Shown piece after piece: positions 1,922-46,400 of a stretch of DNA of 64,000 nucleotides. Below the pieces are notes generated by a model, which saw nothing but the letters and a program-made list of their open reading frames with translations, did no database searches and was not told where the DNA came from. The stretch covers positions 1 through 64,000 of the IMG/VR virus record IMGVR_UViG_3300028920_000061; one strand, 5' to 3'. This DNA is from a virus. Each line of letters starts with the position of its first letter. The stretch's first letter is position 1. The position numbers and the translations under genes are program-made.

Positions 1922-4900
1922 ATGGGTTCAAAATATAAAATTCGAAAAGAAGATTTAAGGTCATTTTACAGAATGAGTGATCAGTACATGGAAACGATGG
2001 GTTATCACGAAGTGTACAAGAAGCTCGGGTGGCAGCAGGGCCCGAGCGGCAACTTCCACTGCTGGAACTCTGCAGCTCATGGCCGCGGTACCGACAACAA
2101 CCCTTCCTTATCAGTAAATGACAAGACCGGTCAATGGAATTGCTTCAGTTGCAACTGCGCCGGCAACTTCCAGTCTTACTGGAAAGAGGTTCTCAAGGGT
2201 GGTCAGTATGGAGATTCATATAGTGATTTCGTAATTGACCTGCTCAATCTAAATGTGCCGGATATCATGGGATTTTCTCAGGATTTTGATGAAAAAGAAT
2301 TTGAGGCCAATCGGGAGAAGATGGCTAAGTTTGCCGACGCTCTGAACAAGAGATTTGAAGAGCAGAAGGGCAGCAAATACCTCATGACATCAGAGCTTCA
2401 GGAGCTGATGAAAGAAGAAGCCTCCATCCCGAAAGAAGTGGTCGATGGGCTTGTCCAGAGGCTCAAAAATACCCCGCAGAAGATTAAATACCTCGAAGAG
2501 ACCAGGAACGTCACCGAGGACATTATAGACCGGCTCAGAATCGGCCTCACGGACCGTGGGGCTTATTCCATACCCATATTCGATCCGGAAGGAAACTGCC
2601 TTAACATCAAGAAATATGACCCGTTCACCGAGAAGACCGAGTACAAATGGCTGTATTGGGAGAAAGGCCTCCCAGTCCGCCCCATACCGATTGACAACTT
2701 CACCAAGCAGAAGATTTACATATTTGAGGGGGAACCCGATATGCTGTGTGCCCTGGGGTTTGGAATCGAGGGAGCGGTTACGATGGGGTCGAAGTCGAAT
2801 AAGGACGTGAATGTCGTTTTTGGGGCCGATATGGCCCGTCAAATCTTCTACAATAAGGAAGTAGTGATTGTATTCGATTCGGACAATGAGCCTGATAAGA
2901 CTGGCCGCACAAGCCAGCAGACGCTGGCACATTCATTGTACCCGTATGCAAAACAGATTAAAATCATTAATCTCGATCAGAGCGATATCAATCCGAAAGG
3001 CCTTGATCCAAATCTGATTAAAATCGTGAAAAACAAAAAAGGTCAGGAGAAAGAAAAGAGAATTGAGAAAGATTTCACAGATTTTATTCGTAGAAATGGC
3101 TTTGATGAACATGCAATTGAGGCATTTCACAGATTGGTAGAGTTAACTGAAGTGTATGTCGAGAATGAAGATCGTGTTCGTGAAACTGTTTGTAAAGTCA
3201 CCATACAGGAAGCTCGTATGGCAAAACAGTATTCTCCGGACGGATCTAAGGTTCTTGAACTTGTTGCTTCAGTATCGGATTTTGATTCAACTGCGTATCA
3301 ATACCCAAAAATATTCTGCGTCTCGTGTCCTCAAATGGGGCCTCAAGAAGATCGGGGTGGTACAAGCAAAATGCCGGGAGCATGTAAACGATGTATGATG
3401 CCGGCGTATCCTGGATTCTTCAAAGATAACAGTGTAGTTATACATTTTCACAGAAAAATCCCCAAAGAATTCTCCAACGATAGAAGGCACCTTAAGATTT
3501 CAGAACATAACATCCTTGGTCTGGTGCAAGTTACTGATTCTCAAAAACGTTACCACCATAAAAGAATGATTGGCATTAATCCACGGTGTGATCTTGTTGA
3601 TGTAACCGACCTGGCGTATGAAAAGCTTCTCCATGTCCGTTTGGTCAAGGACGTTTCTGAATATGGTGATCCGGCCACGTCAGCCATTCATATGGAAGCA
3701 TACATGGTGGGGGATCAAGATATTTATGCCAACAAGTCATACAAATTTAAAGCTGTTCATACAACGTCATGGAATGGTCAATATTCCGTCTTGTTCGCAC
3801 ATGAGGCTGAACCTATTGCCACTTCGATTGAGCGATTTAAAATGAATGAAGATATTCATAATATCCTTATGTCGTTCAGGAGAAAATCTGGCGAAAGTAT
3901 TGATGGCCACCTGGCTCGCAGATACAAGGTTCTTGGTGATGCTGCCGGTATAACTGGTCGAGATGATTTGTTTCTGGTAAATGATTTGACATTCTTTTCG
4001 GCTGCAGAAATTCATAATAAGACATTGTTACCAAGTGTTAATAGGGGCTATGTCGAATCCTTGATTGCTGGAGATTCACGATGTGGTAAGACCATCGTAT
4101 CTAAATTTCTTCACGATCATTATAAAATTGGTGAATTTGTTGCAGGCTCAGGTGCTGTTAGTAGAACGGGGCTCCTTGGTGGCATTACATCATTTAAGAA
4201 CAACCAGTCGATTTCATGGGGGAAAATACCACAAAACGACGGCGGTATCATTTCAATTGATGAGTTGACCAATATCAATTATGAGTCACTTGACAGTTTA
4301 ACCGCATGTCGATCAAGCGGTGTTGCTGATGTTCAAATGGCGAAATCAGGAAAGGTCCCTGCACGTACCAGAAAGATTATGCTGTCCAATGCTCGTGGAA
4401 ATGCTCAGACAAGGCCAAGCCACACATTCGGATTTGAAATGCTGAGAGATATTTGTTTCGGGAAAGATGAGATTCTTTCCCGTTTTGATGTTGCCTATAT
4501 TGTTAGGCAAGGTGATGTTGAATTTAAAGAATTCGCATCATCATATGATCAAATATCAACAGAATTCACCGAATTTCAATGTCAGACACTTATCAAATGG
4601 TGCTACTCTAGAAAACCTGATGATATAATCCTTGAATCAGAATTAGAAGAATATATCACCAGCAAATCTTCAGACCTTTTACAAAAATTTCATAGTTCAT
4701 CACAACTTGTCAATATAGAAATACGGGCTAAAATATTCAGAATGTCCGTTGCTCTTGCAACAATGTTATACTCAATTCCGCCCAATAACGATTGGAATAA
4801 AATTTACGTCAATCGTGAACATGTCGATTTTATATGCAAATTTCTTGATCGGGTTTATTGTCACCCAAACATGGCCCTTGATCGTTATTCGGAAATAAAA

Positions 4901-27719: not shown

Positions 27720-28895
27720 ATGAGAATCAAAGCAATAATTGGAAGTGGCATGGGTGATGAAGGTAAGGGTCGCATGACCGAATACTTTTCCGACAGCAAA
27801 TCAATTGTTGTACGATTCAACGGAGGGGCACAAGCTGGTCATACTGTCGTACTTTCTGACTGGGCGCGTCATGTATTTCATCATTTTGGAAGTGGGAGCC
27901 TGCATGGTGCTCAAACATATCTGAGCAAATTTTTTATTGCCAATCCGATGTTCTTCTGTCGAGAGCGTAGAGAACTTCTGGCGAATTTTCAATGTAATCC
28001 TGATGTTTATATCAGTCCGTTTTGTTTTGTTACGACACCATGGGATATGATCATTAATGATCTAACAAATCAGAAAAACCAACATGGTACCTGTGGATTT
28101 GGCATTAACGAGACTGTTGAACGATGTCAGAAGATGACATTAAATGTCAGTACGCTTCAGGCGGACTACTTTGACGACCTTCTCATGCACATCGTCAATG
28201 ACTGGGTTCCGGTAAGAATTGAAGAGCTTGGGCTTGAGCCCGACGCAACATACCGCAAATGGCTTTCAAGCGAGAAGATGATAGACAATTTCAAAGATGA
28301 TGTCAAATCATTTCTCAATTGGGTAACGATAGGAGACCCAAACTTTGACTTTGCCGAACAAGTCATTTTTGAAGGCGCTCAGGGACTCATGCTCGATCAG
28401 AATCATGAAAATTTCCCATATGTTACCAGGTCGAATACGGGAACCGGAAATGTCCGCGAACTGATTGAGGATTTTCATCTTCACGATGAACTGGAAGTGA
28501 CATACGTTACCCGGTCATATGCGACCAGGCATGGGGCCGGACCTTTACTTCATGAGGATAAGACTCTCCAATATGGCGACCCAACAAACGTTCCAAACAG
28601 GTTTCAGGGAAGTCTACGATATGGCCTTCTCGATATAAATCAAATTGTTCATGAAATCAATCAAGATATGGTAAATCTAAACGGCCTGGAGTACAATCCA
28701 AGTATTGCAGTCACCTGCCTGGACCAAAATCCCGGATATTGTATCTGGGATGGTAAGGAAGAGCGCTTGTCACACAGTGAGCTATGCAAGCACGCTCTTG
28801 CGGACAATCTCCAGTTTAGCAAGGCGTATGGGTCCATTGGCCCCAGAACAACTGATCACATGAAAGTGTGGGAAAGGAAAGGGGTGCCAGTATAA
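27720..28895 (+). CDS. purA: Adenylosuccinate synthetase-like protein (divergent PurA)
   Basis: GMGDEGKG, RFNGGAQAGHT, FEGAQG, PYVTRS, YATRHGAGP. Confidence 0.8.
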   Translation: MRIKAIIGSGMGDEGKGRMTEYFSDSKSIVVRFNGGAQAGHTVVLSDWARHVFHHFGSGSLHGAQTYLSKFFIANPMFFCRERRELLANFQCNPDVYISPFCFVTTPWDMIINDLTNQKNQHGTCGFGINETVERCQKMTLNVSTLQADYFDDLLMHIVNDWVPVRIEELGLEPDATYRKWLSSEKMIDNFKDDVKSFLNWVTIGDPNFDFAEQVIFEGAQGLMLDQNHENFPYVTRSNTGTGNVRELIEDFHLHDELEVTYVTRSYATRHGAGPLLHEDKTLQYGDPTNVPNRFQGSLRYGLLDINQIVHEINQDMVNLNGLEYNPSIAVTCLDQNPGYCIWDGKEERLSHSELCKHALADNLQFSKAYGSIGPRTTDHMKVWERKGVPV

Positions 28896-29474: not shown

Positions 29475-29698
29475 TGCCAGAAATTATTATAACCATAGCA
29501 GCCAAAGAGCTGGATCATGAGCAGCTTGATGAGGTTCGATATACAATTGAAAAGGTGGCTTCTTTGTTAGCAAATTCAAAGCCACCAAGCTTAAATGAAG
29601 TTATGGCGAATGCGTTAACAGGCACATTACCTGAGATGAGAACTCCAACCATGGTAATGAAAGCCACTTATGATTACATGCGGGGGAATCGTGGGTGA
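29474..29698 (+). CDS. Small hypothetical protein
   Basis: Stop/start overlap with the upstream gene. Confidence 0.5.
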   Translation: MPEIIITIAAKELDHEQLDEVRYTIEKVASLLANSKPPSLNEVMANALTGTLPEMRTPTMVMKATYDYMRGNRG

Positions 29699-29842
29699 AT
29701 ACATGATACCAGCAGATGAGTTTATTGACGGGTTCGAAGACTTCCTTCGTAACTTTGAAGGTAATGTGTCAGCGGAATGTGTAGCCGAAGCGTGGAACAG
29801 GCTGGCTGAAAAATACGAATGGTCTGATAAGTTATTTGCCAA

Positions 29843-30049
29843 ATGAAAAGAAAAAGAATTGATATACCCAATGACGCGGTTCGGTCACTTGACTGGTTAT
29901 GTGAAAAATGTGGCGAATCGCGTCCTGGGTGTATTTTAAGATTAATAGCAATGGGAGTTCGTGAAACAGAACTTTTTCTTCAAAGAAAGAAGTATCAAGA
30001 AGTTATCAATCGGTGGGGAGAACCTACTCGAAAGATGGTCAAAAAATGA
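29843..30049 (+). CDS. Small protein, possible ribbon-helix-helix
   Basis: MKRKRIDIP.D....LD.LC...G.SR...ILRLI pattern. Confidence 0.45.
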   Translation: MKRKRIDIPNDAVRSLDWLCEKCGESRPGCILRLIAMGVRETELFLQRKKYQEVINRWGEPTRKMVKK

Positions 30050-30086
30050 AAGTTTGTAATACAAGGAGTTATGCAAAACTCTAGTC

Positions 30087-30344
30087 ATGCTTTTTATTGA
30101 TCGGAGGTTGCTTGTGTTTCAAATAATGTTAGCATCATTCATAACAGGGTTTGTGTGTTTCTTGCTTGGTTGCTGGTATCAGCAACGCAACAGTAACACT
30201 AAGGTAGGCACTCCTTCCGCATCGCACAACAGGCCAATTATGCAAGTTTGCCCTGTGTGCGGTAGTAGCGTTTCTTTACAACCATCTTTGGGTGCAAATA
30301 TATACGGCTGTTGCAAGTGCGAGTGGTACGGCAAACCAGCATAA
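30087..30344 (+). CDS. Cassette 1 protein: TM helix plus C-terminal Zn ribbon
   Basis: Hydrophobic segment; CPVC...CCKC encoded inside site 1; alternative GTG start at 30114 after GGAGG. Confidence 0.6.
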   Translation: MLFIDRRLLVFQIMLASFITGFVCFLLGCWYQQRNSNTKVGTPSASHNRPIMQVCPVCGSSVSLQPSLGANIYGCCKCEWYGKPA

Positions 30345-30363
30345 GTTGGCCGAACCGTTGTCG
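30224..30363 (+). repeat. attC-like site 1
   Basis: GCACAAC-A-GGCCAATTATGC...GCATAA-G-TTGGCC-GAACC-GTTGTCG. Confidence 0.75.
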
Positions 30364-30400
30364 GCAATATCTGTTGAACCATAATGTAAAGGAGTGCCTA

Positions 30401-30718
30401 ATGGCAAATTTTCGTAATCAACTTACCGACCTTATCAACTGTCACTCGCTAGAGAACGGCAGTGATACTCCAGACTACATCTTGGCAGCATACTTGGATG
30501 GTTGCCGCAAAGAATTTGACGCTGCCGTTAACGCCCGTGCTCGGCACTCCTCAGAACAAGAGGTGTCAACAGAGAAAGCCGACAACAGCGACTATGCGGC
30601 GGCGCTTGAAGTGTGGGGCGAGTTTTTGAACACGTTCGTGATAACAGAAAGCGATAATAAGGTTTTTCCAGAGTGGTGTCGTAAGCGCCTCAATTCGGAG
30701 AAACCGAACTGCGCATAA
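30401..30718 (+). CDS. Cassette 2 protein (ENGSDTPDYILA-type small phage protein plus tail)
   Basis: RBS AAGGAG; stop inside site 2. Confidence 0.7.
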   Translation: MANFRNQLTDLINCHSLENGSDTPDYILAAYLDGCRKEFDAAVNARARHSSEQEVSTEKADNSDYAAALEVWGEFLNTFVITESDNKVFPEWCRKRLNSEKPNCA

Positions 30719-30733
30719 TCGCAAACGTTGTAC
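30580..30733 (+). repeat. attC-like site 2
   Basis: CGACAAC-A-GCGACTATGCG...CGCATAATCGC-AAAC-GTTGTAC. Confidence 0.75.
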
Positions 30734-30767
30734 AAAATTTGTGCGCTTTTGAATTGGAGGTTGCGCC

Positions 30768-30971
30768 GTGAAATATTGTAAGGTTGAATTTATGTGCGAT
30801 TGGTATCCGAACGATACGAGTAAATGCCCTCACCGTGTTTTAGATAAGTACCGTGATTGCATTTACGAAAATATTATTGCCGAAAACTATGCTATTTGTG
30901 GCAGCGAAGAGGCGCAACGGGAAGCTATGGAAGCGCACAAACTTCGTACAACAGGCCAAGTGTCGCAATAG
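30768..30971 (+). CDS. Cassette 3 Cys-rich small protein
   Basis: RBS GGAGG, GTG start; stop inside site 3. Confidence 0.6.
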   Translation: MKYCKVEFMCDWYPNDTSKCPHRVLDKYRDCIYENIIAENYAICGSEEAQREAMEAHKLRTTGQVSQ

Positions 30972-31009
30972 TCAAAGCACTACTGCGCACGTTGGCCGGA
31001 ACGTTGCAG
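30946..31009 (+). repeat. attC-like site 3
   Basis: GTACAAC-A-GGCCAAGTGTCGCA...TGCGCAC-G-TTGGCC-GGAAC-GTTGCAG. Confidence 0.78.
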
Positions 31010-31042
31010 GCCATAGGGGCTGAACCATATTGGAGGTTGGTA

Positions 31043-31324
31043 GTGGTGCAAGTAAAGTGGTTGCAGATATACAAGTGTCGTGACTGTTGGCACCTTGAGC
31101 CGAGTTACGGAACTGGTGATAGGCGTTGCGGATTAACTGGGCGCAAGTGTGAATATGTCCCCGGCGTTGGGTGGTATGAGGATGTGCCGGAATGGTGTCC
31201 ACTACCAACAGCAGAATCGGAGTCAGCCCCAACAGGCCAACAACAGTCCGCAGGAACGCCATTGTCGCAGGATTATGGAATAAATAAACGGTTGGAGCGC
31301 GAACAACAGCGTCCGTGCGGCTAA
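31043..31324 (+). CDS. Cassette 4 Cys-rich protein (C..C...C...PEWCPL)
   Basis: RBS GGAGG, GTG start; stop inside site 4. Confidence 0.6.
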   Translation: MVQVKWLQIYKCRDCWHLEPSYGTGDRRCGLTGRKCEYVPGVGWYEDVPEWCPLPTAESESAPTGQQQSAGTPLSQDYGINKRLEREQQRPCG

Positions 31325-31333
31325 TCGTTGTAG
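31238..31333 (+). repeat. attC-like site 4
   Basis: CAACAAC-AGT-CCGCAGGAACGC...GCGTCC-G-TGCGG-CTAATC-GTTGTAG. Confidence 0.72.
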
Positions 31334-31370
31334 GTCATAGCTGGTGAACCATATTGTAAAGGCGGTCAAC

Positions 31371-31661
31371 ATGGATTTTGAAAATAGAAAGAAGTTGCGC
31401 GAGAAGTACCGAGAAGAAACTGGATTTATGTGGAAGGTTCCACACCCAAAGTTTCTGCTTGCATCAGAGGGGTATGTCATGTGGCTTGAAGACCGCCTTG
31501 AAAAGGCGGAGTCACCAGCAACGAACCCACAACAAACGCAGCCTGCCATTGCTCAACTCTGGGAACGGTATTCTGGTATTATGCCTGACGATACTCTGGA
31601 GAAACGTGCTTGTATTGCTAATTTTGTCAGATATGTTGAGCAACAACAGGCGGGTGCGTAA
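31371..31661 (+). CDS. Cassette 5 protein
   Basis: Y..ETG...YV.WLE pattern; stop inside site 5. Confidence 0.6.
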   Translation: MDFENRKKLREKYREETGFMWKVPHPKFLLASEGYVMWLEDRLEKAESPATNPQQTQPAIAQLWERYSGIMPDDTLEKRACIANFVRYVEQQQAGA

Positions 31662-31671
31662 TCAGTTGTGC
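31527..31671 (+). repeat. attC-like site 5
   Basis: CCACAAC-AA-ACGCAGCCTGCC...CAGGCGGGTGCGT-AATCA-GTTGTGC. Confidence 0.72.
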
Positions 31672-31718
31672 GCAATCAACTGGCGAGTCTACATTGTAGG
31701 CCGCCGAAGGAGGTAAAG

Positions 31719-31922
31719 ATGAAAGGATTTATCGGTTTGATTATTGTGGTTCAAATTGTAGTGTACATCGGGATGGTGTCACTGGTCGGATGGGGCCTCT
31801 GGACTGGCGCAAGATATGTGTCAAAGCACGGCGTAAAATCAATTGTAGAGGAAATGTGGAACGGGTCGGCGGCAGAAAAAGAGGGTTCGCCAGTTGACAA
31901 CACACAACAGCCGCAGCACTAA
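31719..31922 (+). CDS. Cassette 6 small membrane protein
   Basis: RBS AAGGAGG; long hydrophobic helix. Confidence 0.65.
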   Translation: MKGFIGLIIVVQIVVYIGMVSLVGWGLWTGARYVSKHGVKSIVEEMWNGSAAEKEGSPVDNTQQPQH

Positions 31923-31962
31923 ATACTATCGTACTTCGTGCGAGTGCGGCGATACGTTGTGT
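31902..31962 (+). repeat. attC-like site 6
   Basis: ACACAAC-A-GCCGCAGCAC...GTGCGAGTGCGGC-GATAC-GTTGTGT. Confidence 0.75.
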
Positions 31963-31999
31963 GTTCGCTTCGCAAATTTTAACCTTTGGAGTATTGTAA

Positions 32000-32272
32000 A
32001 TGGAAATACATTGTTGCGGTTGCGTTGCTGAAGATATTTGTGAGGCTGTTCAGGGCGATAATAGATGTCTTGATTTCCATAAGGCTTTGGAAGCGGTTAA
32101 AACGTCACACAACAGCGCTAGTACGCAATATTTTCCCGATGAAAAGGAGATGAAACATGCCGCGAGTCAGTGGATTGATTACCTAAGCACTATAGATTCA
32201 ACATACTCTGACTTAGAGCAAACTTTTATACAGGGAGTACGATGGGGTATCGGCCAACTGCCGGGCAAGTAG
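32000..32272 (+). CDS. Cassette 7 protein
   Basis: RBS GGAG; Cys-rich N-terminus; AA...FIQGVRW tail inside site 7. Confidence 0.6.
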   Translation: MEIHCCGCVAEDICEAVQGDNRCLDFHKALEAVKTSHNSASTQYFPDEKEMKHAASQWIDYLSTIDSTYSDLEQTFIQGVRWGIGQLPGK

Positions 32273-32287
32273 TGCGAGACGTTTTGT
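32107..32287 (+). repeat. attC-like site 7
   Basis: ACACAAC-A-GCGCTA...TAGTGC-GAGAC-GTTTTGT. Confidence 0.6.
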
Positions 32288-32318
32288 GAATATGCCGATG
32301 TAAAATGCAAATGGAGGT

Positions 32319-32639
32319 GTGATTAAACATGAAAGCTATAGTATTCGGATCAGAAGGTTGTGTGAAAGTCCAGTCAGCTTTTTAACAATTGGAGGCGGCA
32401 TGCCACATTTCAGCGAAGAAGAAACGATTTCGATAATCAAACGTCTGATTGAGTTAGCAGAAATCAAGGAAGGGCGCCTCAAATCTAAGGAGTTGGCTAC
32501 TTCACCCAACAACCGCTATGCGACGGCGCTTGAGGTGTTGAATGAGTATGAAGAGGATGATTCATATTCTCCCAACGAACCGCCGTTTGAGATATGGCTC
32601 AAGTTGCGCCTAAATGCCGATGGCACTTCGCATAGCTAA
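32319..32639 (+). CDS. Cassette 8 protein
   Basis: RBS GGAGG (alternative start 32400); tail inside site 8. Confidence 0.55.
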   Translation: MIKHESYSIRIRRLCESPVSFLTIGGGMPHFSEEETISIIKRLIELAEIKEGRLKSKELATSPNNRYATALEVLNEYEEDDSYSPNEPPFEIWLKLRLNADGTSHS

Positions 32640-32649
32640 ATCGTTATAG
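32504..32649 (+). repeat. attC-like site 8
   Basis: ACCCAAC-AACC-GCTATGCGA...TCGCATAGC-TAAATC-GTTATAG. Confidence 0.75.
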
Positions 32650-32701
32650 TCAATAAATTTGCCTTCTGATAGTATAGTCAGCTGGTAAGAAAGGAATTAT
32701 T

Positions 32702-32854
32702 ATGCCATTGTATACAGTATCAGCAGATTGTCCAATCACGGAGTACGAAGCTGATGATGAAATGGGTGCTATCGAACAGTATTCTGAGAATTATCGTGTT
32801 AATTACAAGTTTTGTTCAGCAACAAAGTGTGATGAACCCGCTGAAGAAGAATAA
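32702..32854 (+). CDS. Cassette 9 acidic 50-aa protein (not in ORF track)
   Basis: AAGGA RBS; MPLYTVSADCPITEYEADDEMGAIEQYSENYRVNYKFCSATKCDEPAEEE. Confidence 0.55.
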   Translation: MPLYTVSADCPITEYEADDEMGAIEQYSENYRVNYKFCSATKCDEPAEEE

Positions 32855-32872
32855 GGTGGGCAAATTTACAGC

Positions 32873-32940
32873 AACCAACAACCGTATGGTGTTCGTTTCA
32901 CGAATGCGGGTATGCACTTCACCATACTTTCCCGTTATAG
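32873..32940 (+). repeat. attC-like site 9
   Basis: AACCAAC-AACC-GTATGGTG...CACCATAC-TTTCCC-GTTATAG. Confidence 0.75.
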
Positions 32941-32959
32941 GCTGTTTGAGGAGGCTTTT

Positions 32960-33226
32960 ATGGATATAGCAAATTTGACCCGATACACTATTGATTATGT
33001 TCCAGACTCTTGTGATGGTGATTATGTTCAGCATAATGTAAGCAAGGATGGCGAGTATGTCAAATTTGAGGAAGCTATGGAAGCCTCCTCAAACAGCCTA
33101 CAACAGCTAAAGGCTGAAATTTTAGCACTACGCAAAGATGGTGTAGTTGCAGACGATATGTATTGGATTGGTTGGAACATGGCCCTTGAACGTACTGCTG
33201 GTATGCTAAAACAATCAGCCGTTTAG
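32960..33226 (+). CDS. Cassette 10 protein
   Basis: RBS GAGGAGG; DGEYVKFEE motif; GWNMAL tail inside site 10. Confidence 0.65.
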   Translation: MDIANLTRYTIDYVPDSCDGDYVQHNVSKDGEYVKFEEAMEASSNSLQQLKAEILALRKDGVVADDMYWIGWNMALERTAGMLKQSAV

Positions 33227-33238
33227 CAAACATTGTCG
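33098..33238 (+). repeat. attC-like site 10 (ATT instead of GTT)
   Basis: CTACAAC-A-GCTAAAGGCTGA...TCAGCC-G-TTTAGC-AAAC-ATTGTCG. Confidence 0.7.
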
Positions 33239-33272
33239 GTAATCGGTTGTCAAATTATAGAAGGGCGGCAAA

Positions 33273-33584
33273 ATGAAGTTGAAAATGCACTCGTTTGATT
33301 TTGGTGAAAACACTCTGACATTTAGTATTCCCGCTGCTACTATGGAGTCCCATGCTTGGGGTAATGTCCCTGATGGTGTAGATGTAGACCTGTCCAAGGT
33401 GACTAATGACGTTGCCCTTGGGACTAATGGAACAACCGACTCCGCTGGCGCTACCGACAACATCGCAAGGGACGAAATATTGCGCTGTATCACGTACATA
33501 GATAATTATTTATCGGCTGGCAATATTGAATCGGCTCGCAAATGGTGCAACGAAGTACGCGCAATACTATCGCCCGTTGCGTAA
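33273..33584 (+). CDS. Cassette 11 protein
   Basis: ORF with helical tail inside site 11. Confidence 0.6.
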   Translation: MKLKMHSFDFGENTLTFSIPAATMESHAWGNVPDGVDVDLSKVTNDVALGTNGTTDSAGATDNIARDEILRCITYIDNYLSAGNIESARKWCNEVRAILSPVA

Positions 33585-33593
33585 CCGTTGCAC
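33455..33593 (+). repeat. attC-like site 11
   Basis: CGACAAC-AT-CGCAAGGGACGA...TCGCCC-G-TTGCG-TAACC-GTTGCAC. Confidence 0.75.
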
Positions 33594-33621
33594 GCCAGTT
33601 TTGATTTTGGAGATTTGTATT

Positions 33622-33804
33622 ATGTCAATATTGCCTAAACGTTGCAAATGTGGCAGATGGTCGTGGAGTATTCGGCGTAGAAGATTAAACACAGCCTACG
33701 TTGACGAGGAAAGAAATTATATGTACTCGTGTCGCGAGTGCTATGAAGAGGCTTACGAATACTACGCCGAACGATGGGCGGATTATTATGCTAATTGCAT
33801 GTAG
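33622..33804 (+). CDS. Cassette 12 small Zn-finger-like protein
   Basis: RBS GGAG; CKCG...RRRLNTAYVDEERN...CRECY..Y.ERW..YY. Confidence 0.65.
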   Translation: MSILPKRCKCGRWSWSIRRRRLNTAYVDEERNYMYSCRECYEEAYEYYAERWADYYANCM

Positions 33805-33845
33805 GAAGTGCAAAACCAGCATGCAACAACAGCCGGAGGTAAAAA

Positions 33846-34088
33846 ATGCAAGAACAAAGAGAAAAAGCCCATTCGATATTACGCAAGGCATTCGATGAGG
33901 CTGGAATAGCAGATGGGTTTTATTGTGGTGTTTTAATGGATGGAACTGATGTATCCGCGTACAGTGTCGGACGTGAGAATAAGGCAGAGTATTCTAACGT
34001 AGAGCGGTATCAACGCCTTCTCGGTGTTGTTGAATCGTGCAAATACTCATTATTGGTCAAAGCTCACGAAAAGCAGGAAAAATCATGA
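33846..34088 (+). CDS. Small hypothetical protein
   Basis: RBS GGAGG. Confidence 0.55.
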   Translation: MQEQREKAHSILRKAFDEAGIADGFYCGVLMDGTDVSAYSVGRENKAEYSNVERYQRLLGVVESCKYSLLVKAHEKQEKS

Positions 34089-34197
34089 AAGGTTTTGTCA
34101 CCCCACAACAATGATGTTATTTTTTTTCACTTTGTGGAATAGTAATAATATACAGATCTTTTGAAATATCATATATTCTACAACAAAGGAGGAATTC

Positions 34198-34959
34198 ATG
34201 GCAAAGGTCCATGAAATTGTTGCTGTCGAGAAAGACGTGAAGGGCACATTCAATAAGATGCTGGGTGAAACTCGCATGACATTCCTGAAGGGTGAGCATT
34301 TCGATGAGCACCTGAAAGAATACCAGCCGCTCAATGCTGACGATCGTGAACAGCTCGATGCCGAACACAAGCCCATGGCTGACACTGTCCCCAGCAAGTT
34401 GTCATATTTCATGGGGCATATGAAGAGAATGTTCGACTTGGTGATACAGAAAGAAGTATCCAATCTGGACGCCAAAGCTGATGTCACTGTTCAAACAGAC
34501 AGTGGTGATGAAGTTGTTTTGTACGAACAGGCTCCGGTTGCGGCTATTGTTCAGCTTACCAATCTGATGGAAAGCGTTCGGATTCAGGTTCTTTTGAATA
34601 TCCCCACGCTTGATCCGGCAAGATCCTGGGCATCCGACGGAAATCGTCAGGACGTGTTTGTCACCCCCGAAGTCAGACGCGCCAGAACCAAGAAGGTGCA
34701 GGTCCCTATCGAATTGTCGCCGGCTACAGACAGACACCCGGCGCAGGTTCAGCTTGTCACGGAAGATGTGACTACCGGCCACTGGGTGCAGAAGTACTGG
34801 TCCGGTAAGATATCTTCGGCTGACAAGTCAATGATTCTGAAACGAACCGACGCCCTCATAGCAGGCCTCAAAAGAGCCAAGTCGAGGGCTAATGAGAGTG
34901 AGGCGAAGAAGGTTGCCATAGGCGATCGCTGCGCCAAATGGATTTTGACAGGAGAATAA
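34198..34959 (+). CDS. Conserved hypothetical protein (MAK.HEI.AVE / ATDRHPAQV type)
   Basis: RBS AGGAGG; motif pattern recalled from uncharacterised phage and bacterial proteins. Confidence 0.75.
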   Translation: MAKVHEIVAVEKDVKGTFNKMLGETRMTFLKGEHFDEHLKEYQPLNADDREQLDAEHKPMADTVPSKLSYFMGHMKRMFDLVIQKEVSNLDAKADVTVQTDSGDEVVLYEQAPVAAIVQLTNLMESVRIQVLLNIPTLDPARSWASDGNRQDVFVTPEVRRARTKKVQVPIELSPATDRHPAQVQLVTEDVTTGHWVQKYWSGKISSADKSMILKRTDALIAGLKRAKSRANESEAKKVAIGDRCAKWILTGE

Positions 34960-34964
34960 TCAAT

Positions 34965-35344
34965 TGGACGTATACTGAATTCGGGCTGGGGGACCAAATG
35001 AACCCGGCCCCGTCATATTCAGATTCATGTTGATGGGAGTAGTTTTTACGAAACCGCTCATGTTATTGCGTCCTATGTTCAGGTTTATAACCTCAAAAAC
35101 TTTTGATGCCGACACTAACACCTGTAACGAGAGTTCAAATCTCTCCCCGCCATCCAGAAATCAAAAATCATTTTTGGTTTCTCGATGGCGGGTAGTCCAG
35201 TGGTAAGACACAGGCATGATGTTTATGCTCGGTACGTCGATAGTCAAGAGGTGAAAAAAAATTCGTAATGAATACCAACACTTGAACTGTTGATTTATTC
35301 AATAAGTGGCGGGGTGGCAGGATACGTCTGCCCCGCCTTTTTTT
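34965..35344 (+). ncRNA. Putative structured ncRNA containing a circularly permuted tRNA-like (YrlA-like) module at 35121-35214
   Basis: Order is CCTGT, T-arm GAGAG-TTCAAAT-CTCTC, CCCGCCATC, closing hairpin, GATGGCGGG, TA, D-arm GTC-CAGTGGTAA-GAC, ACAGG; no ORF; ends in a terminator. Confidence 0.7.
35308..35344 (+). terminator. Rho-independent terminator
   Basis: GGCGGGG...CCCCGCC followed by T-run. Confidence 0.8.
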
Positions 35345-35368
35345 ATTTTGGTTACAACATTTTTTTAG

Positions 35369-35447
35369 CCGTTAGACTAACGGAAAATCTGGTATAACTA
35401 TAATAGGCAAGAGAATTCACTCTTGTCTATTTCCGTCGGAGGAAATA
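35369..35447 (+). promoter_or_regulatory. Promoter/leader module, copy 2
   Basis: CCGTTAG...TGGTATAACTATAATAG, hairpin CAAGAG/CTCTTG, TTTCCGTCGGAGGAA. Confidence 0.7.
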
Positions 35448-35756
35448 ATGGTAGCCCTTATCACAAAAACAATAAAATACGAATGCCACATTTATGAAGA
35501 GTCTGATGACGCGGCTGAAGAATTAGTTAAGATGGTTGATGAATGTCAACCTCATATTATTAAAATCCCCAAAGATATTGAAAAGTTTGCTAATGATTAT
35601 AATATTTTTATTATATACAAACTTCCCGGGGAAGGAAATCCAACTATAAAAGAATTTCTGTCAAAACCTGATGAATTTCGGCGATTTGAATGGCATGATA
35701 CCATTCATGAGATGGGGCTTCGTAATCGCTTAAAAAATGGCGTTGGGGAATCGTAA
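35448..35756 (+). CDS. Hypothetical protein
   Basis: Directly downstream of the promoter module and GGAGG. Confidence 0.65.
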   Translation: MVALITKTIKYECHIYEESDDAAEELVKMVDECQPHIIKIPKDIEKFANDYNIFIIYKLPGEGNPTIKEFLSKPDEFRRFEWHDTIHEMGLRNRLKNGVGES

Positions 35757-43462: not shown

Positions 43463-46400
43463 TCATCTGGAAAGGAGTGAAAAATAGCTCAAACCGAACC
43501 TGCGTATATATTCTACAATGTCGATCTTAGACCAGTCAAGGCCGTCATCCCAGTCTCCTGAAGGGGGCGTTATCGGATTCCACCATGGCATATTTGTATA
43601 ATCATTTACTACACCGGTAACCCTACTATCAATATACTGCATGGTATCCGATCCGGTCCCAAAATTCCCATAGGAAACCGGGTAGGTTCTCGCCTTTAAA
43701 GGTCTTATTCGAATATATATTTTGCTGTTTTCATCCACATATCTATCAAAATCGCTATCGTCACCCCTTGATCCAAAATCCATGTGTCTTGTTTTAAAAA
43801 GCGTATCCACAGCTGAAGATGAAAACTGTGTTTCACAGCTCTTAAACTCAAAATCAGTTTTCTTATTCAATTTCGAATAGGGCTTATGAAGGGAAACGGG
43901 CCCTTCCCAGTCATATATATTTGCTGGTATGCCAGAGCCGTCAGTGATATTGTATGAGGCGCTTGGTGTTGTGAAATACACCTTTAAGCGTGTATTGTTC
44001 GGGTAGACGGTGTCCTGCTCCACATAGGCAACATGATACATTCTTCCAGTTTCACTGTCATACATGACGAGGTTTGATTTTTCATCAACTTCAGCTGCCT
44101 CTTCGTCTGTTAATCCATAATCAATTGCTGAAGAGTCGTATTTTTCCAATATGACAAAATAAAGATTATTATGCACTAAAACTTTTGAAACTGCTGCATG
44201 AAGTCCTGAGACAAGGGTTTTAGCAGTGTATTTCTTATTGTCATACAGAGTCATTGAAAACGGTCGCCACATTGCCCTTGTTGAACCATTGACTGGGTAA
44301 GCAGTATCCCATACTTCAATTATCACATCCGACAGAGATTCTTCAGTTGGTTTGTACCTGGTCCCATCCGTATAATCTTCATTGCTTGTTGCGGGTGGCC
44401 AGTATGCGGTATGACAAAACGCTGACACTTTTGAATAAATCCATCGTTTAATATCAGGAATCCCAGCATATTCATCCTGCTTTCGTCCTGTTGTACTTGA
44501 CAACTCAGCAGTATCAAGCTCAAGCACATAAGATGGATACTCACGGTTGATATACGAACTGAATTTATTGTCTCCATATTTCCAGACGCGATTATCAACA
44601 TTCCAAACCATTTTCATATCGGCTGGATTATGTGAAAAAAGCGAATCATCAATATCAATATCAAACGTACCAAATGTTGGATAAGTCTGTCTTGGTTTTG
44701 TCATTGATATGAAAATGGATGTCTCATCAACTCGATAATAACATAGATGCGCAGGATATATCAGACGATTAGCCGGTCGTGACACCATTTGTGTCAGATG
44801 ACCGCCGGCGGATTCTGGGTCGCTTTCAATGGTGTCCTCAGTTGGTGAATCCATTCCTTTGAAATAATCTATTCGACAAAATGCGTCATCACCTTCAGGG
44901 GCATACCTGGCGTTGTAGGAATCATAATGATTGTTGGAATCCAACGCCCATGATCCGGCGTTAATATAGGATGATTTTTTGAATATTTGAGTTTTCTTGA
45001 ATTCAGACTGCCCTGCTACTCTGACCTGATATGAGCCGGCGCAAAATGGAAATTCCACTTCATACATTATTTCTTCACGGCCATCACTTAGCAATACCGG
45101 TTCGATATATGGGTCCCTTCTAATGATTTTAACATACCCATGTATTCCAGGTATTCTCAGCATTGGTCTGAAAAGTTCATAATTGTCTATTTGGTGAATC
45201 CATTGAGGCATTGTTATGAGGGAGTCGCTTACAGTATCAGGACCGCCGGGTACATAATTAGTACAATAGAGTTTCGCATACACAGACGCTGAGCCCATTC
45301 CATTTTTTTTAGAATAATGACCGGCACCACAAATTCTAATCTTTTGGTCGGTGTAATAGCTTTCTATATCAGCAACTTCAGGACTGGCTGCTGAATTAGT
45401 ATAAAAACTAAAACGTTTTACTCCTGTATCACCAACAAGTCCGCCAAGTAAATCATCAAGGGCATATTCTTCTCTTTTGAAATAGTCATTTAAAGAGGCT
45501 CCCTTGAAAGTATCATATGCCTCCGTGTCTTCACCTTCCATTTTCATTTCTGGGCCGTTCAAATGAAGAACATGAAGAATATCAGTATTATATTCTTCTC
45601 TATCAAGTTCACGGTCAAGTTCACGAATATATGCTCTTGGCGCACGTATTTTAACACATGCTGTCCAAGCTTTTGGCCAACTAAAACTTATGTCACCCCC
45701 ATCAGCTCCAACGATTTTGTAATCTATCGCCTGTCCGTTCGCAAGGGGTCTCACTTTCATGTACGGCTCTGTTGTAACGATAGAGGAATACCGGCGATTT
45801 CGTTCTGTCTGTACATCTATACCGCGTATGAAATTTGAACTATCATACATTTCCTGACCAATCACATAATTTCCACCGCCTTCATCGTATACGTTATTGC
45901 GAGAAATATGAAAGGCTATTTGTGACTGATCATCCTCTTCATATGATAAGCCTGGAGCATGAAAAAATGATTTTCCTTCTGGGGTAACAGGCCCCGAATG
46001 TGCCAATTTTTGTTTTTCAATAACATTTTTCTGAGACAATTGAGGCAATAGGCGCGTAGTTAATAGTGCAATAGTTGCTTCCTGAAATTGGCCATCAACT
46101 TTATCGTCTCCATCGTAAACTTGATTATAGAAAAGTGGCAATCCGATATACGGATGGCACGTCCATGGTTCTTCCGATTTGAAATCATACGGATAGTGAA
46201 TAAATTCTACTATTCCGCCATCGCAAAAACCCCAGTTGATGTCAGTTGGTACAACTTTATAATCAAGTAGTCTTGTAGTGTGTGCGATATCTGCATTAGC
46301 TACAAGGGCCTGTGCGGCACTCGTACAGTCCGCGTTGTATGTCCCCATTACCACAGAGAAACTGTAATCCTTCAGGGTTAATGGGCTGAATGATCGGTGT

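Follow-up and report, generated by a model that had tools for sequence, protein, structure and literature searches.

An integron-like cassette array was detected on the + strand of the window, the 64,000-nt stretch of phage DNA analysed here (IMG/VR record IMGVR_UViG_3300028920_000061). It contains 11 complete cassettes and a 12th with the P-AAC half-site only, and 11 AAC...GTT hairpins were located on the + strand between 30052 and 33830. The left edge (30052) is tentative because of the weak F5/P match there. Each cassette appears to run from a GTT through a 5' arm (F5), expression signals, a small ORF, a 3' arm (P) and AAC into an imperfect hairpin followed by the next GTT, P being the predicted reverse complement of F5 in each cassette. 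In the list, the paired numbers after each site are the first bases of its AAC and GTT, and delta denotes one family of hairpins.

29843-30049, 68-aa gene, upstream flank of the array
30052-33830, + strand, cassette array
30226-30361, + strand, site 1, ACAAC...GTTGT, 30228/30357, interior 126 nt; ORF 30087-30344 reads through, CPVC...CCKC encoded in the loop
30582-30731, + strand, site 2, delta family, 30584/30727, interior 140 nt; ORF 30401-30718, tail 44 aa, head of the widespread LINCHSLENGSDTPD phage protein family
30948-31007, + strand, site 3, short, 30950/31003, interior 50 nt; ORF 30768/30792-30971, stop 6 codons past AAC
31240-31331, + strand, site 4, 31242/31327, interior 82 nt; ORF 31043-31324, GTT begins 2 nt past the stop
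31529-31669, + strand, site 5, 31531/31665, interior 131 nt; ORF 31372-31661, GTT begins 3 nt past the stop
31904-31960, + strand, site 6, short, 31906/31956, interior 47 nt; ORF 31719-31922, stop 4 codons past AAC
32109-32285, + strand, site 7, weak fold, 32111/32281, interior 167 nt; ORF 32000-32272, head 37 aa, FIQGVRW in the tail
32506-32647, + strand, site 8, delta family, 32511 (or 32506)/32643, interior ~130 nt; ORF 32400-32639, tail 43 aa
32878-32938, + strand, site 9, short, 32880/32934; ORF 32702-32854 ends 26 nt upstream of AAC (sole complete cassette without read-through)
33100-33236, + strand, site 10, 33102/33232, right junction ATT, interior 127 nt; ORF 32960-33226, GWNMAL in the tail
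33457-33591, + strand, site 11, 33459/33587, interior 125 nt; ORF 33273-33584
33587-33830, + strand, cassette 12, 5' arm 33587-33603 complementary to the P-AAC half-site 33811-33827; ORF 33632-33804, stop precedes AAC, no clear right arm downstream
33846-34088, ORF, downstream flank of the array
34198-34959, DUF7873 gene, downstream flank of the array

The F5/P complementarity extends over 17-46 nt in five cassettes, and the array is retrieved by a chain walk; in sites 4 and 5, AAC was assigned by complementarity with the 5' end of the same cassette. Hairpin length is bimodal, with full coding confined to the long sites. Long hairpins (82-167 nt) would carry a coding loop adding 26-53 residues, Zn-ribbon-like or helical, and short hairpins (47-58 nt) would add few residues to the protein. 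None of 10 cassette proteins matched any Pfam family above its cut-off.

According to the sequence-only reading of this DNA, the ORF upstream continues past the AAC to a stop codon within the hairpin in 10 of 11 sites. We confirmed this count, cassette 9 being the exception, and the motifs named for sites 1, 7 and 10 are all present. The stop precedes GTT by 2-12 nt in the eight long sites and by 31-33 nt in the short sites 3 and 6. The chance of a frame open to the observed extent per long interior, estimated by shuffles, is 0.035-0.29, and the product over eight sites is 10^-8.4 (~4e-9), showing that the hairpin interiors, as predicted reading frames, are under coding constraint. A single set of bases appears to act both as the swap site and as the predicted protein tail. 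Among the 10 read-through sites AAC is read as Asn in five (1, 2, 7, 8, 11), in the Gln phase (xxA CAA Cxx) in four (4, 5, 6, 10) and in the Thr phase (ACA ACA) in site 3, and therefore most random exchanges at AAC would be out of frame. Cassette 8 of phage G1, where a longer head ORF is out of frame with its own Zn-ribbon tail, looks like the product of such an exchange.

Comparison with related sequences demonstrated that heads do not keep the same tails. P0027 joins the head of cassette 7 (39 aa, 100% identity) to a delta tail of the site 2 type, and in P0008 a head of the cassette 2 family, together with STEKADN, precedes another Cys tail; the head is common to L112 cassette 2 and P0019 but the tails differ, several of the key re-pairings being seen at the protein level only. 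In G1, cassettes 8 and 11 have a common interior behind different heads, and cassettes 4 and 14 have common F5 and P with different bodies and interiors. Site 10 and L105 (5153-5445) share head, P and arms and differ in the loop, and the site 11 arms are common to G1/G2 sites with a Zn-ribbon loop or located after methyltransferases. The site 3 interior matches a site of G2, an unrelated phage contig, with full identity in the 42 nt adjoining AAC and 94% over 67 nt. Homology begins or ends precisely at the AAC, at single-base resolution: ungapped identity across AAC changes from 0.24 to 1.00 or from 0.98 to 0.50, and across GTT from 0.98 to 0.33. In same-head pairs with tails of different families, the junction sequence common to the parents is limited to ACAAC(AG). 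These alignments show heads and hairpin interiors as separate modules with sharp junctions at AAC and GTT, and among the sequences compared the combinatorial pairing of heads and tails is a real evolutionary pattern.

The tails of sites 2 and 8, proposed earlier to be homologous, form one family in the same frame (AAC = Asn in both; BLASTP E 7e-5, 15/45 identical) behind unrelated heads (no alignment at E <= 100). The similarity lies mostly in base-paired DNA arms, the peptide ends co-vary in a stem-like way and protein-level conservation is absent from the loops. Across its 10 copies the delta family conserves a three-stem DNA hairpin, and arms of 20-30 nt are near-identical within families; of the 25 pairs given by RNAalifold, 7 show compensatory double changes. 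NSDYAAAL... and ...RLNSxKPNCA, the conserved ends of the peptide, are the translated base-paired arms. The right arm is in frame with the left arm in 10/10 sites, though the loops have 37-52 codons, and aromatic positions of the tails are retained via different codons. A profile of three delta tails matched 170 proteins at E <= 1e-3, nearly all at the extreme C-terminus. The tail is recognisable in 135 of the 149 matches listed, that is, in at least 135 small metagenomic proteins, and BLASTP sorts the 132 heads with a length of 25 aa or more among these listed matches into 108 mutually unrelated groups. Tail residue 3 co-varies with the C-terminal end among the listed matches: PN[CVI]x occurs with D in 42 and with R in 1, and SHS with R in 6 and with D in 0. 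One delta tail ends early (37 aa) and other delta tails lack the right arm.

The folding statistic is of moderate strength, with DNA-fold z-scores of -0.9 to -4.1 for 10 sites and +0.2/+0.3 for site 7, where pairing is limited to short outer arms. Covariation over the 10 family members is stronger structural evidence for the predicted hairpin than the z-scores. In 2/10 delta sites, sense-strand A:C mismatches become G:T on the complementary strand, a sign that the folding molecule is DNA and not mRNA.

Breakpoints were analysed in 49 HSPs of >=30 nt among 9 arrays, with G1-G2 pairs excluded. The left end is the AAC in both partners in 11/49 and the right end is the GTT in 12/49, the AAC and GTT junction windows together making up 5.3% of array positions (~2.7% per junction type when halved). 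Only 3/49 right ends fall at AAC, in 20/49 HSPs both ends lie away from junctions, and many mosaic edges are off AAC, either ~19-28 nt into the arms or in P, ~25-58 nt upstream. Between the G1 and G2 phages (~99% identical) head and tail stay together in each common cassette, and the breaks on either side of it are at GTT; an AAC-to-AAC unit was not seen between them. The whole cassette from GTT to GTT, head and tail together, is the only directly documented mobile unit. In a second sediment run two contigs diverge directly past the site 1 AAC, and contigs also diverge at the GTT junctions 30356, 31326 and 33235. The source run gave a single, weak joint of the AAC type (depth 2, short side of 22 letters, one extra base).

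The tails could be passengers of a compact genome whose sites tolerate any pairing sequence and form a homogeneous family, as in chromosomal-integron repeats, with neither AAC exchange nor tail function. Conservation concentrated in paired arms that co-vary as DNA, the short, arbitrary tails of methyltransferase cassettes, whole-cassette movement at GTT and the absence of Pfam matches above the cut-off (0/10) would agree with this. However, the frame is open in eight long interiors (10^-8.4), delta loop lengths are in frame in 10/10, only long sites of the bimodal distribution are fully coding, and CxxC...CxxC loop motifs are not derivable from DNA symmetry. Identical or near-identical heads carry unrelated tails and identical interiors lie behind unrelated heads, with base-sharp breaks; therefore descent alone is insufficient, and we consider passenger tails unlikely. 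Somewhat less likely again is translation for the sake of expression, in which ribosomes near GTT would keep the mRNA hairpin melted for the next cassette, the peptide being irrelevant to the open frame. According to the cited part of PMC8876359, attC stem-loops of class 1 integrons are obstacles to ribosomes, an effect relieved by short ORFs within attC; stops clustering 2-12 nt before GTT in the eight long sites and loops unconserved as protein fit as well. This would leave unexplained the AAC re-pairing, the Zn-ribbon loops and the aromatics retained via different codons. The right arm is untranslated in short sites, the A:C to G:T changes in 2/10 delta sites favour DNA over mRNA folding, and the next start codon is ~50-60 nt downstream, so translational coupling is not tight.

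Phage recombinases acting on short homology where F5, P or arms are shared would make AAC the mere start of homology, as suggested by the many mosaic edges off AAC, the 20/49 HSPs with neither end at a junction and the near-identical arms of 20-30 nt. Yet ACAAC(AG), all that the parents share at junctions between the same head and tails of different families, is too short for homologous exchange, and the hairpin geometry with compensatory changes indicates selection on the folded structure; this explanation is slightly less likely still. Very improbable is a selfish, MITE-like palindrome entering gene ends in frame. It would resemble the ~150 bp Rickettsia palindromic elements, which insert in frame into unrelated genes as described in the cited part of PMC10969869, and here palindromic units of ~130-150 nt are translated as a conserved ~44-aa peptide in many unrelated small proteins. 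The units are, however, confined to ORF 3' ends in tandem arrays and always lie between AAC and GTT, no target duplication was seen in them, whole cassettes move at GTT, and the cassette-specific F5/P complementarity fits a circular-cassette intermediate. The cited text describes the Rickettsia elements as scattered in genes of one bacterial genus, without arrays, AAC/GTT junctions or cassette structure.

We suggest, as the rather probable reading, that this is an integrase-less, integron-like array of an uncultured marine-sediment phage in which AAC is a second crossover point and heads and tails have been re-paired. The ORF, lacking its own stop, would cross P and AAC and end within the hairpin, and therefore the hairpin would be a folded-DNA recombination structure and the gene 3' end at once. 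With AAC as second crossover, heads and hairpin-encoded tails would be re-paired over evolutionary time, possibly by a structure-specific, integron-type reaction on the other strand. The earlier interpretation, that crossover at AAC swaps C-terminal modules, is thus partly supported: its underlying observation and the re-pairing pattern hold, and the AAC crossover itself is inferred, the documented mobile unit being the whole cassette. The top strand has the bulged arm opposite its AAC, potentially the geometry that IntI prefers by the rule of Nivina et al. 2016 (PMC5027507); that paper, in the part cited, reports IntI cutting within the 5'-AAC-3' triplet, in R'' on the top strand, and strand choice shifted or relaxed by inverting extrahelical bases. 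Top-strand recombination at R'' is the mechanism that we propose for the AAC junction, by analogy with results obtained in E. coli on class 1 and Vibrio sites, where its frequency is low for wild-type sites. A tyrosine recombinase was not found in six array-bearing phage records; the enzyme would be host-encoded or of unknown kind.

Phage attC clusters without integrase (CALINs) were described by Qi et al. 2023 (PMC9892861). As far as the cited text goes, our array resembles integron/CALIN cassettes in being tandem, same-direction and small with no integrase in cis, in its imperfect AAC...GTT hairpins with unpaired spacer and bulged base, in the complementarity of the cassette 5' end to its own inverse core, in whole-cassette exchange at GTT and in the methyltransferase cassettes of related arrays. 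It differs in the absence of the 7-bp RYYYAAC/GTTRRRY consensus (outer complementarity is 12-46 nt), in interiors predicted to be translated for up to 53 codons, in the re-assortment of interiors and heads at AAC and in cassettes that seem to bring their own expression signals. The bulged arm of the coding strand is here the GTT-proximal one, unlike in integrons, and the integron analogy is imperfect for either strand.

The premise that attC variable terminal regions are non-coding needs nuance, since short ORFs within attC and translation across recombination sites (PMC8876359) and engineered attC sites that work embedded in coding sequence (Nivina et al. 2020, PMC7439510) have been described, going by the portions cited. 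As with ORF-11 and short attI/attC ORFs that aid downstream cassette translation, the recombination site is translated with a stop at the core site; those peptides are separate, leader-type and of 11-18 aa, whereas the phage tails are predicted C-terminal extensions of the cassette protein. The synthetic sites likewise fit hairpin and peptide into one DNA stretch and encode linker-like peptides, but they were engineered, are short, with a VTS of 3-21 nt, and were assayed with IntI1; the phage sites are natural candidates known from sequence, with loops to ~100 nt encoding predicted mini-domains. In the literature covered, phage attC clusters and engineered coding attC sites are published and no report on natural translated attC sites was found. 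The array places putative hairpin recombination sites within the genes' own frames, and related sequences re-pair gene fronts and tails exactly at the site edge.

The array on the + strand (~30052-33830) consists of 11 complete units followed by a twelfth with a half-site only. Each unit opens with GTTGT and the 5' arm (F5). A short leader follows, in which a motif recurs and a Shine-Dalgarno sequence is present, and after it a small ORF and the 3' arm (P), whose last bases are ACAAC. Next comes the imperfect hairpin (the site, from AAC to GTT), and a 4-6-nt unpaired spacer precedes the GTTGT of the following unit. Two inverted repeats interlock, one formed by the hairpin arms AAC...GTT and the other by F5 and the P of the same unit. 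AAC is at the left end of 11/11 sites and GTT at the right end of 10/11 (ATT in one), with the local core consensus ACAAC / GTTGT. The boundaries were set manually and by an anchored chain walk (GTT to the complementary P-AAC to the next GTT), which regains the array except for cassette 8. Automated site finders were unsuited: the strict stem scan, the 7/7 stem scan and the Smith-Waterman site finder were insensitive or noisy, and the ungapped F5/P scan was full of chance pairs.

Features of the array and its surroundings
27720-28895, + strand: 391-aa adenylosuccinate-synthetase homologue (PF00709, E 4.7e-43)
29843-30049, + strand: small gene immediately 5' of the array
30052-33830, + strand: array of 11 units and a half-site unit
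30357-30376: 5' arm of cassette 2
30376-30392 and 31346-31362: leader motif GAACCATAWTGTAAAGG
30722-30729, 30998-31005 and 33227-33234: right junctions in which AAC directly precedes GTT

The window covers the initial 64 kb of an IMG/VR record of 81 kb (~45% complete by CheckV), and the public runs containing the array are marine-sediment metagenomes. Replication genes in the window encode an MCM-type primase-helicase, an exonuclease/PD-(D/E)XK protein, a SNF2 helicase and the adenylosuccinate-synthetase homologue; the latter may be a PurZ-type enzyme of 2-aminoadenine genomes, and 2-aminoadenine, if present, would alter hairpin stability too. The array and one neighbouring gene, used in DNA and protein searches against the INPHARED phage collection, brought up no record resembling the window, and the DUF7873 protein alone as query gave no relative locus. 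An Rfam scan of 29500-35500 gave three chance-level matches only, one of them L20-leader at 35240-35350.

Two IMG/VR phage contigs with related arrays, G1 (45.6 kb) and G2 (35.2 kb), were found by leader motif scan and tblastx. Outside the array the two agree at ~99% identity; which cassettes they carry, and in what order, differs. The ORF and F5/P pair of G1 cassette 3 cross the contig ends in frame (45502-45625 / 1-244; L020-L022), so that the 45.6-kb G1 is a closed circle or a permuted whole genome. A small gene stands immediately 5' of the array in both phage groups (G1 44572-44845); to our eye its products in the window and G1 have the loose pattern [VI]P...[LV].WL in common, and on this impression they might be ribbon-helix-helix-like. 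The leader motif of the window is also present in the fetched loci L006 (1319-1335) and L011 (5276-5292), with a TTATAGG-type motif in G1 and G2, and lies 10-20 nt 5' of cassette start codons. Integron cassettes are promoterless, whereas the cassettes described here may carry their own promoter or translation signal.

The first bases of integron cassettes pair with the cassette's own inverse core in the circular form. The 5' end is likewise complementary to its own inverse core in the majority of the G0, G1 and G2 cassettes, though only weakly so in window cassettes 1 and 8; such complementarity is the signature of integron cassettes and of a circular intermediate.

F5/P complementarity
I1: 46 nt, 80%
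I2: 43 nt, 72%
I3: 22 nt, 91%
I4: 21 nt, 86%
I9: 17 nt, 82%

The sequence-only reading had claimed that the upstream ORF reads through AAC and stops within the hairpin in 10/11 sites, and this was borne out, the exception being cassette 9, whose ORF ends before AAC. In the short interiors (47-58 nt between AAC and GTT; sites 3, 6, 9) the ORF stops 4-6 codons past AAC or before it, and in the long interiors (82-167 nt; sites 1, 2, 4, 5, 7, 8, 10, 11) the frame stays open until 2-12 nt from GTT; the same split is present in G1 and G2. Shuffled interiors are open as far as observed with a probability of 0.035-0.29 each, jointly 10^-8.4 for the eight long sites. AAC encodes an in-frame Asn in only 5/10 read-through sites. 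The motifs quoted earlier (CPVC...CCKC, FIQGVRW, GWNMAL) are all present in the translations, and the proposed homology of the site 2 and site 8 tails, in the same frame on unrelated heads (the ORF parts before AAC), was recovered (tails E 7e-5, heads without alignment). This reading of ORFs into the hairpins is real and far beyond chance.

Much of the similarity between tails is conservation of the hairpin arms. Among 10 intact members of the site 2/8 family (the delta family) the arms align well and the loop does not. The RNAalifold structure has three stems (R-box, outer and inner) plus a small side hairpin, which sits on the right arm. It contains 25 pairs, 7 of them with compensatory double changes; the side hairpin varies as TTCGG/CCGAA, TGCC/GGCA, TCCGC/GCGGA, TGCGC/GCGCA and TGCG/CGCA. 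The conserved peptide blocks NSDYAAAL and RLNS.K.PNCA are the translated stems, and tail residue 3 co-varies with the C-terminal end in the protein set, as a base-paired stem predicts. The tails are also under coding constraint: both arms are read in the same frame in 10/10 delta sites despite differing loop lengths, aromatic/hydrophobic positions persist although their codons differ (E-[YFW] follows the left inner stem, and F..[WYF][CL]..RLN precedes the right inner stem), and CxxC...CxxC motifs are present in other loops (window site 1; G1 cassettes 8, 11, 13), beyond the reach of DNA symmetry. By stem covariation together with the frame and codon evidence, the site 2/8-type stretch is subject to two constraints, one on the hairpin and one on the reading frame. 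None of the 10 cassette proteins scored above a Pfam family cut-off, and any intrinsic function of the tail peptide is putative.

The tails of window sites 2 and 8 and of G1 cassette 3 were combined in a profile. Searched exhaustively against 1.84 billion representative proteins, it matched 170 proteins at E <= 1e-3, nearly all of 52-144 aa and matched at the extreme C-terminus; a word-based search with the cassette 2 tail alone returned only the query. Peptide-pattern scans gave 3 viral and 9 metagenome loci, and chains of such cassettes were present in at least seven fetched loci (L105, L106/L107, L108, L110, L111, L112, L116). By the peptide pattern used, the delta tail was absent from one genome each of 185,579 prokaryote species. 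For the pattern of sites 1 and 3, L011 was the sole find in IMG/VR.

Heads and tails are not in fixed pairing. The head of cassette 2 is a member of a phage family that is widespread and stands alone (LINCHSLENGSDTPD), and 10/10 database homologues match the head only. Its relatives are encoded at 169 viral loci, of which 80 were kept for analysis; the cassette F5/P signature was detected in 0/80, which makes this head an ordinary phage gene elsewhere. The database protein P0008 has the cassette 2 head with the seven pre-Asn residues (STEKADN) followed by a different Cys-rich tail, while the first 39 residues of P0027 are 100% identical to the cassette 7 protein and precede a site-2-type tail. 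L112 cassette 2 and P0019 have a common head and different tails, and in P0017 and P0074 the site-2-type tail follows cassette-10-like heads. In total, 132 heads (>= 25 aa) on the site-2-type tail fall into 108 BLASTP groups.

Families of residues before the Asn (..APSAS, ..ALKPSH, ..VEGQKPTT, ..STEKAD, ..KTSH) recur on different heads (P0013-P0160; L108, L109, L111-L113, L115, L116), so that P, the outer arm, is encoded by the site as well and translates into a linker-like peptide. A 264-nt empty cassette (L112 2097-2361 and L110 634-898) has the 5' arm of window cassette 2 and a 3' arm that is its perfect 20/20 complement; it may be a frame receiving cargo. A cassette without a credible ORF (L011 7496-7719; G2 30436-30659) contains the long stem CTTATGG...CCATAAG and a site 94% identical to window site 3, and is possibly a structured RNA.

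Ungapped identity over 45 nt on each side jumps at AAC, so that the breaks between heads and tails coincide with this triplet. Of the three outcomes named in the sequence-only reading as refuting it, fixed head-tail pairing, tails without coding constraint and breaks away from AAC, none was borne out.

Ungapped identity left and right of AAC
Window site 3 and a G2 site: 0.24 / 1.00
G1 cassettes 8 and 11: 0.49 / 0.95
Two G1 N6-methyltransferase cassettes (F5 and P shared; gene body and interior different): 0.98 / 0.50

Jumps across GTT were detected as well (0.98 / 0.33 and 0.29 / 1.00). Among nine arrays, G1-G2 pairs excluded, 49 HSPs of at least 30 nt were obtained. In 11 of them the left end coincides with AAC in both partners, and in 12 the right end falls on GTT; the AAC and GTT junction windows cover 5.3% of array positions, or ~2.7% per junction type by our halving. 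Only 3 HSPs end at AAC, and neither end is at a junction in 20/49.

The comparison of G1 with G2, the only direct natural experiment on the mobile unit, identified whole cassettes as this unit: three shared blocks stand in different order and context, with GTT breaks on both sides and head and tail intact, and both ends of the variable array join the conserved backbone exactly at GTTG.

Blocks shared by G1 and G2
G1 1300-1646: G2 28197-28543
G1 1035-1300: G2 30171-30436
G1 2224-4070: G2 30659-32505

Since the blocks and both array ends break at GTT, an array read backwards as its only register, with cassettes bounded at AAC and genes antisense to the canonical direction, was rejected for the window/G1/G2 group. 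The idea from the sequence-only reading that crossover at AAC swaps C-terminal modules stands in its core, site-encoded C-terminal modules joined at AAC to unrelated heads, and needs correction in that the documented mobile unit is the whole cassette bounded at GTT and the AAC crossover is putative.

Contigs from the source sediment run (X1) and a second run (X2) diverge from the window at GTT junctions about 30357, 31327 and 33235. Two sediment-run contigs diverge directly past the AAC of site 1 and others 19-20 nt past an AAC, which is the left-arm end. The mosaic thus has edges of several kinds, the sharp ones being GTT and AAC. One weak joint links P of cassette 7 to ACAAC and the interior of site 10 (depth 2, short side 22 letters, one extra base). 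The first cassettes vary within the source population. In X1, cassette 2 (30335-30668) has a word depth of 1-9 against ~42 in the flanks, and a depth-21 contig links 30067 to the GTT at 30357; array parts uncovered in X2 and the low X1 depth of cassette 2 were excluded from evidence.

Tyrosine recombinases were sought in the window's own record, in G1 and G2, and in records of 467 kb and 40 kb (the latter rated complete), and none was detected. Six-frame PF00589 searches gave no match at E <= 1 in the 81-kb record (~45% complete), G1 and G2, and none at E <= 0.1 in the further array-bearing records G003 (467 kb), G004 and G005. BLASTP of ORFs from G0, G1, G5 and 80 kb of G3 detected no backbone protein in common, leaving no candidate for a common recombinase, and together these results suggest that the enzyme is host-encoded or unrecognised.

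According to PMC5027507, IntI cleaves within 5'-AAC-3' of a folded single strand (at R', the GTT side, on the bottom strand and at R'' on the top strand), strand choice is set by unpaired features, with extrahelical bases opposite the AAC in the recombined strand, and inverting these bases shifts or relaxes the choice. The extrahelical bases of canonical attC lie opposite the AAC of the recombined bottom strand (PMC5027507), whereas the window sites carry both a bulged base and the 4-6-nt spacer on the + strand arm proximal to GTT, where the bottom-strand AAC also lies. By the rules of PMC5027507 the + strand looks recombinogenic, with cleavage at the AAC inside the ORF. Contrary to this geometry, whole cassettes break at GTT. 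The right junction often has AAC directly before GTT because the unpaired spacer ends in AAC; the resulting palindrome AACGTT, also present at many G1/G2 sites, makes the exact cleavage position and strand ambiguous.

From the observed modules and junctions we infer how they were made. Both strands would be used over evolutionary time, one register moving cassettes and the other re-pairing heads with hairpins; this as yet unproven two-strand use is the simplest reading covering both junction sets. Homologous exchange via the conserved arms, which align well across the delta family, could contribute, and so could template switching at hairpin bases; the sharp mosaic edges are at GTT and AAC, and others lie at the left-arm end or, in the HSP set, away from either junction. 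Returning to two-strand use, we tentatively suggest, rating it less likely than not, that sediment and soil phages run a two-register hairpin system in which AAC on one strand and GTT on the other are both crossovers. As both junctions would be crossovers, gene bodies and hairpin-encoded C-terminal modules (a linker plus a Zn-ribbon or helical tail) would be shuffled independently, by a host or still unknown enzyme, since the phages carry no integrase.

The array shares with attC arrays the AAC/GTT triplets, the complementarity to its own inverse core and cassette movement bounded at G/TT. The attC core consensus is RYYYAAC (R'') / GTTRRRY (R'), 7 bp, and the window sites differ in that it is not kept: 30000-34200 contains 3 RYYYAAC matches, one of them (32504) at a site edge, and 6 GTTRRRY matches, none at a site's GTT. 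The core is written G/TTRRRY in PMC9892861, which describes phage-borne integrons and 17 CALINs, with methyltransferase cassettes among them, and reports IntI1 activity on attC sites of virulent phages. An integron, unlike a CALIN, requires an adjoining integrase, and none was found here. Short ORFs in attI/attC aid translation, as PMC8876359 describes, and Rickettsia palindromic elements translated inside genes are a distant analogue (PMC10969869). Rickettsia-type elements and MITEs are scattered through ordinary genes as in-frame insertions that have terminal inverted repeats and target duplications, whereas every translated-hairpin copy seen here lies at the 3' end of an ORF within an array, flanked by AAC and GTT. 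In the literature covered, taken apart from the supplementary phage lists of PMC9892861, where related phages may already appear, no description was found of attC-like sites that are natural and translated in phages, nor of heads and tails being re-paired at such sites.

Integron attC sites are regarded as recombination signals that follow genes. Here the signal is inside the gene and is read as protein, and one site-encoded tail ends more than 100 unrelated small phage proteins, whose C-termini should not be taken for ordinary homology; this large pool of small proteins probably represents early or anti-defence genes. The system bears on cassette birth, as F5/P frames were seen to hold differing cargo and one frame is apparently empty. 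It bears on strand choice too, because the sites have an inverted geometry with respect to the cassette boundary that was observed. Engineered attC sites work in linkers and in lacZ (PMC7439510), and protein-module recombination at a structure-defined point has so far been synthetic only; a real AAC crossover would be its natural counterpart, and the two-register system, if true, would mean natural protein-domain shuffling by structure-specific recombination in these phages.
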